Made by a program: the position numbers and the translations under genes
NCBI RefSeq assembly: GCF_003334355.1
Contig: NZ_QOWP01000002.1
DNA length: 64,000 nucleotides
Direction: 5' to 3' (one strand)
Source: Escherichia coli
Lineage (GTDB): Bacteria; Pseudomonadota; Gammaproteobacteria; Enterobacterales; Enterobacteriaceae
Notes under the pieces: generated by a model
The model's database searches: none
The model's input: the letters and a program-made list of their open reading frames with translations, nothing else
Told to the model about the DNA's origin: nothing
Shown: in pieces, positions 61,302-63,848 of the stretch
Layout: every line of letters starts with the position of its first letter
Position numbering within the stretch: the stretch's first letter is position 1

Positions 61302-61769
61302 TCATTGAAGGCATTGCGTCCTGATGTATTCCTGAAGCGTTCTCAGTGCTGTTTGGTCGCGGATAATTCCGTCCCGGATATCGAGAACGTTTCGTCCAGC
61401 AACTGGAGAGAGTTCGACGGTGGCATCATTGCCCATGCCGGAGGCGCCGGAGGTTTCGGCTGAGGATGGCTCAGGGCATTTTCCTTTGACGAGCACCCTG
61501 CCACCATTATCAAGCTTGCGCCGAAGAGCATCATTTTCAGCTTTCGCATCAGCTAACTCCTTCGTGTATTTAGCATCGAGTGCATCAGCAGCACGCTGGC
61601 GTTGCTGCATGTCAGTAATGGTGGCGGCCGCCTGCTTCAGCTCACTGACTTTTTTATCGCGCTGCTCTTTGTAGGTCATGGCGTTATCACGGTAATGATT
61701 AACAGCCCATGACAGGCAGACGATGATGCAGATAACCAGAGCGGAGATAATCGCGGTTACTCTGCTCAT
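61302..61769 (-). CDS. Rz: Inner-membrane spanin Rz
   Basis: 155-aa ORF with N-terminal TM and coiled coil, closely similar to lambda Rz (recall). Confidence 0.85.
61343..61549 (-). CDS. Rz1: Outer-membrane lipoprotein spanin Rz1 (embedded in the +1 frame of Rz)
   Basis: 68-aa ORF wholly inside Rz; lipobox (MVAGC) and proline-rich segment (PKPPAPPAW) as in lambda Rz1. Confidence 0.7.
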
Positions 61770-62242
61770 ACCTCAATCTCTCTGACTGTTCCGCCAGCTT
61801 CTTTGAATTTTGCAATCAGGCTGTCAGCCTTATGCTCGAACTGGCCATAACCAGCCCCCGGCAACGAAGCCCAGATATTGCTGCAACGGTCGATTGCCTG
61901 ACGGATATCACCGCGATCAATCATCGGTAAAGCGCCACGCTCTTTAATCTGCTGCAATGCCACAGCGTCCTGACTTTTCGGAGAGAAATCTTTCAGGCCA
62001 AGTTGCTTACGATAGGCATCCCACCAACGGGAAAGAAGCTGGTAACGTCCGGCTGCTGTTGATTTGAGTTTGGGGTTTAGCGTGACAAGTTTGCGAGGGT
62101 GATCGGAGTAATCAGTGAATAGCTCTCCGCCAACAATGACGTCATAACCATGATTTCTGGTTTTCTGACGTCCGTTATCAGTTCCCTCTGACCACGCCAG
62201 CATATCGAGGAACGCCTTACGTTGATTATTGATTTCCACCAT
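61766..62242 (-). CDS. R: Endolysin (lambda R-type lytic transglycosylase)
   Basis: 158-aa ORF ([28 protein letters not shown]...) essentially matching lambda R from recall. Confidence 0.9.
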
Positions 62243-62549
62243 CTTCTACTCCGGCTTTTTTAGCAGCGAAGCGTTTGATAAGCGAACCAATCGAGTCAGT
62301 ACCGATGTAGCCGATGAACACGCTCGTTATATAAGCGAGATTGCTACTTAGTCCGGCGAAGTCGAGAAGGTCACGAATGAACCAGGCGATAATGGCGCAC
62401 ATCGTTGCGTCGATTACTGTTTTTGTAAACGCACCGCCATTATATCTGCCGCGAAGGTACGCCATTGCAAACGCAAGGATTGCCCCGATGCCTTGTTCCT
62501 TTGCCGCGAGAATGGCGGCTAACAGGTCATGTTTTTCTGGCATCTTCAT
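62226..62549 (-). CDS. S: Holin/antiholin (lambda S-type, class I, dual-start Met1-Lys2-Met3)
   Basis: 107-aa ORF ([39 protein letters not shown]...) matching lambda S from recall. Confidence 0.9.
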
Positions 62550-62953
62550 GTCTTACCCCCAATAAGGGGATTTGCTCTATTTATTTAGGAATAAGGTCGA
62601 TTACTGATAGAACAAATCCAGGCTACTGTGTTTAGTAATCAGATTTGTTCGTGACCGATATGCACGGGCAAAACGGCAGGAGGTTGTTAGCGCGACCTCC
62701 TGCCACCCGCTTTCACGAAGATCATGTGTAGAAGGCCGCAGCATAACTATCACTGATGAGTTCAGGATAGCCAGTGGCACGGCTCAGTTTGGGTTGTGCT
62801 GTTGCTGGGCGGCGATGACGCCTGTACGCATTTGGTGATCCGGTTCTGCTTCCGGTATTCGCTTAATTCAGCACAACGGAAAGAGCACTGGCTAACCAGG
62901 CTCGCCGACTCTTCACGATTATCGACTCAATGCTCTTACCTGTTGTGCAGATA

Positions 62954-63147
62954 TAAAAAATCCCGAAACCGTTATGCAGGCTCTAACTATTACCTGCGAA
63001 CTGTTTCTGGATTGCATTTTGCAGACCTCTCTGCCTGCGATGGTTGGAGTTCCAGACGATACGTCGAAGTGACCAACTAGGCGGAATCGGTAGTAAGCGC
63101 CGCCTCTTTTCATCTCACTACCACAACGAGCGAATTAACCCATCGTT
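62954..63147 (-). ncRNA. Short terminated late-leader transcript (lambda 6S-RNA equivalent) from pR' to tR', containing qut
   Basis: Region between Q and S is near-identical to the lambda pR'-tR' segment as recalled; a T6 run on the minus strand at 62955-62960 lies about 194 nt downstream of the predicted start; coordinates approximate. Confidence 0.45.
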
Positions 63148-63153
63148 GAGTCA

Positions 63154-63182
63154 AATTTACCCAATTTTATTCAAAAAGTCAA
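63154..63182 (-). promoter_or_regulatory. Late promoter pR' (-35 TTGACT, 17-bp spacer, -10 TAAATT)
   Basis: Minus-strand TTGACTTTTTGAATAAAATTGGGTAAATT directly downstream of Q; matches the lambda pR' arrangement. Confidence 0.6.
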
Positions 63183-63224
63183 TATCATGCCGTAAAGATG
63201 TTGCCATCCGTGGCAATCATGCCG

Positions 63225-63848
63225 CTAACGTGTGACCGCATTCAAAATGTTGTCTGCGATTGACTCTTCTTTGTGGCATTGCACCACCAGAGCGTCATAC
63301 AGTGGCTTAACAGTGCGTGACCAGGTGGGTTGAGTAAGGTTTGGGATTAGCATCGTTACAGCGCGATATGCGGCGCTTGCTGGCATTCTTGAATAGCCGA
63401 CACCTTTGCATCTTCCGCATTCTTTCTCAACAACTCTCCCCCACAGCTCTGTTTTGACAATATCGACCGCACGGCCTGTACCGTGGCAATCTCTGCATCT
63501 TGCACCCGGCGTCGCGGCACTACGGCAATAATCCGCATAAGCGAATGTTGCGAGAACTTGCAGTACCTTTGCCTTAGTATTTCCTTCAAGCTTTGCCACA
63601 CCACGGTATTTCCCCGATACCTTGTGTGCAAATTGCATCAGATAGTTGATAGCCTTTTGTTTGTCGTTCTGGCTGAGTTCGTGCTTACCGCAGAATGCAG
63701 CCATACCGAATCCGGCTTGTGATTGCGCCATCCCCATAGCAGCCATCACATCAGTACCGGAAAGAGAATCAGAAGCCGTGGCCCGTGGTGAGTCGCTCAT
63801 CATCGGGCTTTTTGGCGAATGAAATTTAGCTACGCTTTCGAGTCTCAT
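63225..63848 (-). CDS. Q: Late gene antiterminator Q
   Basis: 207-aa ORF with zinc-binding Cys cluster (CRDCHGTGRA...CGRCKGVG); essentially matches lambda Q from recall. Confidence 0.9.
   Translation of the reverse strand: MRLESVAKFHSPKSPMMSDSPRATASDSLSGTDVMAAMGMAQSQAGFGMAAFCGKHELSQNDKQKAINYLMQFAHKVSGKYRGVAKLEGNTKAKVLQVLATFAYADYCRSAATPGARCRDCHGTGRAVDIVKTELWGRVVEKECGRCKGVGYSRMPASAAYRAVTMLIPNLTQPTWSRTVKPLYDALVVQCHKEESIADNILNAVTR

Follow-up and report, generated by a model that had tools for sequence, protein, structure and literature searches.

A predicted lambda-family late-gene control and lysis module in a P22-like prophage at the argW locus of Escherichia coli

Results

The subject of this report is a candidate late-gene control and lysis module in a 64,000-nucleotide (nt) window of Escherichia coli DNA (contig NZ_QOWP01000002.1), the window being the whole stretch that was analysed. 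The module belongs to a P22-like element that adjoins argW, a tRNA-Arg(CCT) gene at 39776-39850, with an integrase gene alongside, and the flanking mlaA-yfdC DNA was 99.8% identical to that of E. coli. argW is the attachment site of the phages Kapi1, Sf6 and HK620 (PMC8787464). The list of open reading frames (ORFs) and the raw sequence placed all elements of the module on the minus strand, in the order Q, the late promoter pR', a 194-nt leader that ends in a hairpin and a run of six T residues (T6), the holin gene S with its dual start, the endolysin gene R, and the spanin gene Rz with Rz1 inside it (Table 1). A 675-nt intergenic region separates Q from S. The module runs from the start codon of Q at 63848 to the stop codon of Rz at 61302, and an earlier note on this DNA had given exactly these limits, though the features between them lie on the minus strand.

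Local alignment matched window positions 63848-61522 to lambda (NC_001416) positions 43886-46213 with 96.6% identity, 78 mismatches and one single-base deletion, at lambda 44956. Megablast against 50,697 phage records also returned lambda (query 1-2324, 96.6%, E = 0), and homology to lambda began exactly at the ATG of Q. By part, nucleotide identity to lambda was 97.8% for Q, 97.2% for the promoter region, 99.5% for the 194-nt leader, 97.8% for the spacer between the leader terminator tR' and S, 99.1% for S, 95.4% for R and 89.5% for the first 248 nt of Rz; the stretch from Q to the counterpart of lambda orf-64 was 98.2% identical. Gene order, gene overlaps, promoter hexamers, pause element, leader length, and the dual start of S with its upstream stem were the same as in lambda (NC_001416 43886-46427). 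The differences were a ninH gene at the 5' side of Q where lambda has the NinI phosphatase gene, a 50-amino-acid (aa) ORF and a hairpin downstream in place of bor, one mismatch in the tR' stem, one changed base in the pR' spacer, and different alleles of Rz1 and of the C-terminal half of Rz. The earlier note had proposed a pairwise alignment with lambda and had named substantial divergence as the outcome that would tell against its account. No such divergence was found over 63848-61522; the match failed past 61522, within Rz1, and divergence was confined to the distal spanin sequence.

The Q protein was assigned to PF03589, with both the helix-turn-helix body and the zinc-ribbon arm of that family present and the zinc-ribbon cysteines at residues 118, 121, 144 and 147. 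Q was identical to lambda Q at 206 of 207 residues (A131V), which bears out the match claimed earlier, to Kapi1 Q at 205 of 207 and to P22 gp23 at 200 of 207 (96.6%). NCBI lists the exact protein on at least 15 contigs, under the name 'antitermination protein [Escherichia]'. Antisense to Q there is a TTGC-N6-TTGC box whose place in the gene matches that in lambda and P22; its N6 spacer departs by one change from that of lambda, P22 and Kapi1. In P22, a C1/CII-activated antisense promoter (a23, C1 site) is annotated in gene 23 at this position. NCBIfam gave a holin model only and nothing useful for Q, R or Rz1; assignments relied on PHROGs, Pfam and direct identity in its place.

The late promoter pR' lies directly 3' of Q. 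Both of its hexamers, TTGACT at 63182-63177 and TAAATT at 63159-63154, were identical to those of lambda, as the earlier note had stated, and the 17-base-pair spacer between them matched lambda at 16 of 17 positions, the sole difference being an A-to-T change at -28. The Q binding element sits within the late-promoter spacer (PMC9388147, together with general knowledge); the text of PMC9388147 and of PMC7171158 gives no absolute coordinates for this element. P22 and Kapi1 both carry T at -28, so the base appears to be a normal allele of a working promoter, and impairment of the Q binding site by this change was judged unlikely on the same ground. The sigma-dependent pause element AACGAT (+1 to +6) and the adjoining TTGACT were identical to lambda.

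With +1 set at 63147 (lambda 44587), T6 falls at 62960-62955 and the leader ends at 62954, exactly 194 nt, where the earlier note had estimated about 194. An intrinsic terminator is thus present between pR' and the late genes and ends at +194. When the complete window was scanned with Rfam at gathering thresholds, the argW tRNA was the sole hit, which indicated that the 6S-type leader has no curated RNA family. ARAGORN found no tRNA genes between Q and S; Kapi1, in contrast, has tRNA-Asn and tRNA-Thr inserted just past tR', at a place where the lambda sequence is retained in the window. A counterpart of lambda orf-64 is open on the minus strand at 62919-63113 and has been called as a 64-aa gene in one public assembly (L004, GCA_012531255.1). 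Because this frame falls within the 6S leader and crosses tR', it is probably not a real gene.

The only difference from lambda in the leader was a C-to-A change at 63008 (lambda 44726), in the 5' arm of tR'. The same allele was present in two independent public assemblies, L004, which was identical to the window over 3601 nt, and L013 (a Logan assembly of SRR3823860), which was identical over 2103 nt, and a sequencing error was therefore rejected. Among the records that carried the 101-nt segment, 30 from phages and 413 complete genomes of E. coli, none had the variant. Kapi1 (L002) showed a different uncompensated mismatch, C to A in the 3' arm at the neighbouring pair, with a predicted folding energy of -20.9 kcal/mol, and locus L011 showed a third, a single GGG-to-GTG change in the lower stem. 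Three distinct lower-stem mismatches of tR' were thus observed across natural P22-like prophages and phages. The earlier note had singled out the qut site and the tR' hairpin for checking: the pause element and 16 of the 17 spacer positions stood, and the hairpin and T6 were found in place, but with one uncompensated mismatch in the stem.

S matched the TIGR01594 model, and this match together with identity to lambda S indicated a lambda-family holin with three hydrophobic segments. The protein was identical to lambda S at 106 of 107 residues (R105G) and to Kapi1 S at all 107, and shared 96 of 108 positions (89%) with the P22 holin. The dual start, Met1-Lys2-Met3 (MKMPEK), was present as earlier supposed, and the upstream stem CCCCTTATTGGGGG (62569-62556) and the ribosome-binding region were identical to lambda. 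The genes R and S share 17 nt, the same overlap as in lambda, and R was identical to lambda R at 156 of 158 residues, again in line with the earlier claim, and to Kapi1 R at all 158. R was unrelated to the P22 endolysin gp19 (18%).

Rz was lambda-like for its first 83 or so residues only. Its hydrophobic N-terminal segment was identical to that of lambda Rz, and this anchor and the PF03245 match indicated the N-terminal membrane anchor and coiled-coil periplasmic domain of an i-spanin. As a whole, the protein shared 61% identity with lambda Rz, 94% with Kapi1 Rz and 52% with P22 gp15. Rz1 lies wholly inside Rz in the +1 frame, with a lipobox VAGC, Cys19 and a proline-rich stretch; its start codon aligned to that of lambda Rz1 at 46186, yet the protein shared 38% identity with lambda Rz1 and 26% with P22 Rz1. 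Its cluster mates are named 'o-spanin lipoprotein Rz1', and the exact Rz and Rz1 proteins are already in NCBI. The lambda-like arrangement of Rz with an embedded Rz1 was therefore as the earlier note described it, but the claimed match in sequence did not extend to the last 220 nt of the module. These were identical to Kapi1 at 215 of 220 positions and could not be aligned to lambda DNA, and the C-terminal half of Rz and Rz1 are a Kapi1/HK620-type allele.

In nucleotide sequence, S, R and proximal Rz resembled Kapi1 more than lambda. The stretch between tR' and about lambda 44955, where Kapi1 has its two tRNA genes, was lambda-like in the window and closer to lambda than Kapi1 is. Judged by these alignments, the module is a three-part mosaic of a lambda-like segment (Q, pR', 6S leader and tR'), a Kapi1-allele segment (S, R and proximal Rz) and a segment of another allele (the Rz C terminus and Rz1). 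The Rz C terminus and Rz1 are the parts of the spanin that touch each other in the periplasm (cf. PMC6139136).

Downstream of Rz, the module is followed by the 50-aa ORF and a terminator-like hairpin, just past which homology to Kapi1 ends. The 50-aa ORF (phrog_11822) is kept 3' of Rz in Kapi1 and at several other loci, and the hairpin's 15-nt tail, TTTTTTATATCTGCA, is the same as that of tR'. Beyond the hairpin are a KilA-N-type ORF, a homologue of P22 orf80 (99%), and then genes for the small and large terminase subunits, portal, scaffold, coat, gp4, gp10, gp26, gp14, gp7, gp20 and gp16, a block containing sieA, and the tailspike. From Q to gp16 all ORFs were intact and on one strand, and the late-operon genes as far as the tailspike were all full-length. 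The virion gene order was collinear with that of P22, and the tailspike has a P22-type head-binding domain. By tblastn, identity to P22 was 87% for gp10, 77% for gp16, 76% for gp26, 75% for the tailspike N terminus, 35% for portal and 29% for coat, while the terminase subunits and scaffold had no P22 match by tblastn and take their names from PHROG. Such uneven identity, from 87% for gp10 to 29% for coat, is a pattern known for the P22-like phages of the E. coli/Shigella subgroup (PMC2629481). The closest phages over 24 kilobases (kb) were phiv205-1, Kapi1, vB_EcoP-720R6, CUS-3, HK620 and Sf6. These results agreed with the earlier description of the virion genes as P22-like.

Several neighbouring features were also observed in the element. 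Genes 10 (head closure) and 26 (tail needle) are only 3 nt apart in P22; in the window, their homologues flank an ORF for an HNH endonuclease of 181 aa (50949-51494, minus strand). In the block at 44945-45835, between gp16 and the tailspike, the P22-type sieA was 92% identical to its P22 counterpart, and the ORF beside it was 99% identical to P22 DNA 13861-14223; both were far closer to P22 than the flanking head genes. Next to the integrase gene, an O-acetyltransferase gene (41217-42287, plus strand) appeared to be split into a 57-aa N-terminal piece and a 260-aa ORF. The latter matched profile positions 111-366 of 372 only and is possibly a pseudogene.

Among the relatives, Kapi1 (MT813197, vB_EcoP_Kapi1, Lederbergvirus) and phiv205-1 are P22-like phages, as the window element appears to be. 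Kapi1 shares with it integration at argW, identical S and R proteins, Rz at 94% identity, and the same 50-aa ORF and hairpin 3' of Rz, but its tR' mismatch lies in the opposite arm and its genes beyond the post-Rz hairpin differ. P22 (gene 23, P late, 13, 19 and 15/Rz1) has the same -35, -10 and pause element and a homologous holin (89%). It differs in that its late terminator is placed at about +30 to +58, not at +194, its endolysin is unrelated, and its coat and portal are distant, the window element being of the Sf6/HK620 subtype.

The same cassette was found by megablast of phage records in HK620, Kapi1, phiv205-1, IME10 and many others, and more than 5,000 E. coli genomes had matches, the best identity for the prophage segment in that search being 97.4%. 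This maximum prompted the question of a host other than E. coli, against which stands the 99.8% identity of the flanking chromosome to E. coli. Among the loci studied (L005, L009 and L008), an identical Q protein preceded a lambda-type 194-nt leader in some and a P22-type short leader in others. At L008 the holin/lysozyme cassette behind the identical Q was a different one and the terminase was of the lambda Nu1/GpA type; homology to the window stopped there exactly past tR'. Because the same Q precedes varied leaders, lysis cassettes and terminases, the Q-pR'-tR' segment is a freely exchanged lambdoid cassette.

Table 1 Features of the late-control and lysis module and its downstream flank, with window coordinates.
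Feature	Position	Strand	Description and basis
Q, late-gene antiterminator, 207 aa	63225..63848	-	PF03589 on the exact protein; identity to lambda Q
TTGC-N6-TTGC box	63548..63561	+	TTGCGAGAACTTGC, antisense to Q; gene position 288-301; putative function
pR' late promoter	63154..63182	-	-35 TTGACT, 17-bp spacer, -10 TAAATT; promoter scan and lambda alignment
Sigma-dependent pause element region	63142..63154	-	Identical to lambda; role described in PMC9388147
6S-type leader, 194 nt	62954..63147	-	193/194 bases identical to lambda 44587-44780
tR' terminator	62955..63013	-	Long hairpin and T6; arms AATCCAGAAAC / GTTTCGGGATT around an inner stem-loop
GC-rich hairpin	62669..62704	-	GGCAGGAGGT...ACCTCCTGCC, then GTTTTG; between tR' and S; identical to lambda
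S holin/antiholin, 107 aa	62226..62549	-	TIGR01594 holin_lambda, 127 bits (cutoff 55)
R endolysin, 158 aa	61766..62242	-	Identity to lambda R; Glu19 present
Rz i-spanin, 155 aa	61302..61769	-	PF03245, E = 3e-29; phrog_13
Rz1 o-spanin lipoprotein, 68 aa	61343..61549	-	PF06085, E = 2e-18
Mosaic joint	61521..61522	.	High-identity lambda alignment ends (lambda 46213), 28 nt into Rz1
50-aa ORF, hydrophobic N terminus	61162..61314	-	Kapi1_042 homologue; phrog_11822; 13-nt overlap with the Rz stop
Terminator-like hairpin and T6	61103..61128	-	AGCCTCGCATTTGCGGGGCT (61128-61109); end of lysis cassette; conserved in Kapi1

Discussion

We consider it very probable that this region is the late-gene control and lysis module of a P22-like temperate prophage integrated at the argW tRNA-Arg(CCT) gene of E. 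coli. By homology, the virion block is P22-like, of the Sf6/HK620/CUS-3 subtype, and lies downstream of a lambda-family switch and an S-R-Rz/Rz1 cassette. With no reading frame broken, and with the promoter, pause element and leader length conserved, a functioning late switch is most likely. The earlier note had taken the reproduced length of the 6S-like transcript as support for a functional late switch, and that interpretation is consistent with the preservation of all of these features.

The arrangement is the standard, published state of P22-like coliphages; it is already known, and the exact DNA is already in public assemblies. The late antiterminators of P22, epsilon34 and a Paratyphi prophage are 98-99% identical to lambda Q, and the qut site of epsilon34 is identical to that of lambda (PMC2629481). 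A lambda-type Q on a P22-like virion is evidently the norm, because P22 gp23 is 96.6% identical to the window Q and has the same promoter and qut site. For the same reason the contrast implied in the earlier note, between a lambda-type switch and a P22-like virion, was overdrawn.

The steps by which the module would act follow from its near-identity with lambda, for which the action of Q is taken from PMC9388147 and general knowledge. pR' would be constitutive, and polymerase leaving it would pause at +16/+17 through the sigma-dependent element at +1 to +6. Without Q, polymerase would stop at tR' and yield a 194-nt RNA of the 6S type. After induction, Q produced from the early rightward operon would bind its site in the pR' spacer and load onto the paused polymerase, making it resistant to terminators. 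Terminator hairpins would be kept from forming, and polymerase would read through tR' and the later hairpins. The resulting late transcription, about 20 kb on the minus strand, would cover S, R and Rz/Rz1 and then the terminase, head, DNA-ejection and tailspike genes. S105 and S107 from the dual start would set the timing of the membrane holes, R would degrade the murein, and the Rz/Rz1 spanin would disrupt the outer membrane. The mutually contacting Rz C terminus and Rz1 belong to a different allele and appear to have been exchanged as a pair.

Several observations weigh against this reading. The window ends at 64000, inside ninH, and the immunity and replication genes lie beyond it. There appears to be some decay in the element, because the O-acetyltransferase gene looks split. 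The A131V substitution in Q falls in the DNA-contacting arm. The C-to-A change in tR' leaves an uncompensated A.G mismatch in the lower part of the stem, four pairs up from the U tract, and the predicted folding energy is -20.7 kcal/mol compared to -26.9 in lambda, a loss of 6.2.

The first two of these observations could point to an inert remnant of a defective prophage, in which conservation would be due to recent insertion and no late switch would operate, and the HNH endonuclease ORF inserted between the homologues of genes 10 and 26 could be taken in the same sense. HNH insertions are, however, common in functional phages, and the late operon genes from Q to the tailspike are all full-length. 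The close relative Kapi1, which encodes the same S and R proteins, is a viable, inducible temperate phage (PMC8787464). An inert remnant is thus unlikely.

The tR' mismatch could also mean a leaky terminator, with Q-independent transcription of the lysis and virion genes from pR' that would alter spontaneous lysis or prophage expression. This possibility draws on where the mismatch lies, in the lower part of the stem and four pairs away from the U tract, on its cost of 6.2 kcal/mol, on its restriction to this prophage lineage among some 440 phage and E. coli records with the segment, and on the two independent assemblies which indicate that the allele is real. The hairpin is nevertheless still predicted to be stable at -20.7 kcal/mol with T6 intact, and a second strong hairpin with a T-rich tail precedes S. 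Selection would act against leaky expression of a holin and endolysin. Comparable uncompensated mismatches occur in L011 and in Kapi1, and single mismatches in tR' are evidently tolerated, because Kapi1, a viable temperate phage, has one. We therefore regard a leaky tR' as quite improbable. If it were true, low-level lysis and virion gene expression from the constitutive pR' would occur in the lysogen independently of Q, and, with the mismatches of Kapi1 and L011, the strength of tR' would be a tuned, variable trait among P22-like coliphages.

A recent, unusual transfer of the region from lambda proper into a P22-like genome, which would make the element a noteworthy inter-type hybrid, is suggested by the onset of homology exactly at the Q start codon and by the 98.2% identity of the Q-to-orf64 stretch, closer to lambda than Kapi1 is at its two-tRNA segment, but it is highly improbable given the near-identical Q, promoter and pause element of P22, the presence of the cassette in HK620, Kapi1, phiv205-1, IME10 and many other phages and of matches in over 5,000 genomes of E. 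coli, the identity of the S and R proteins with those of Kapi1 and the S, R and Rz nucleotides closer to Kapi1 than to lambda, a published description of exactly such sharing (PMC2629481), and a divergence from lambda of 3.4%, which already speaks against placement at near-zero divergence in the laboratory-lambda clade.

With the late-gene control and lysis module of a P22-like temperate prophage as the preferred reading, the finding is of little importance beyond correct annotation. It provides exact coordinates for the late promoter, 6S leader and terminator of an argW prophage. The Q-pR'-tR' segment, the holin and endolysin as a pair, and the ends of the two spanin genes that interact are seen once more to move as separate lambdoid cassettes, with the joints between cassettes falling at gene starts and directly past terminators. 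The polymorphism of the tR' stem constitutes a small natural data set on the hairpin weakening that an intrinsic terminator tolerates.

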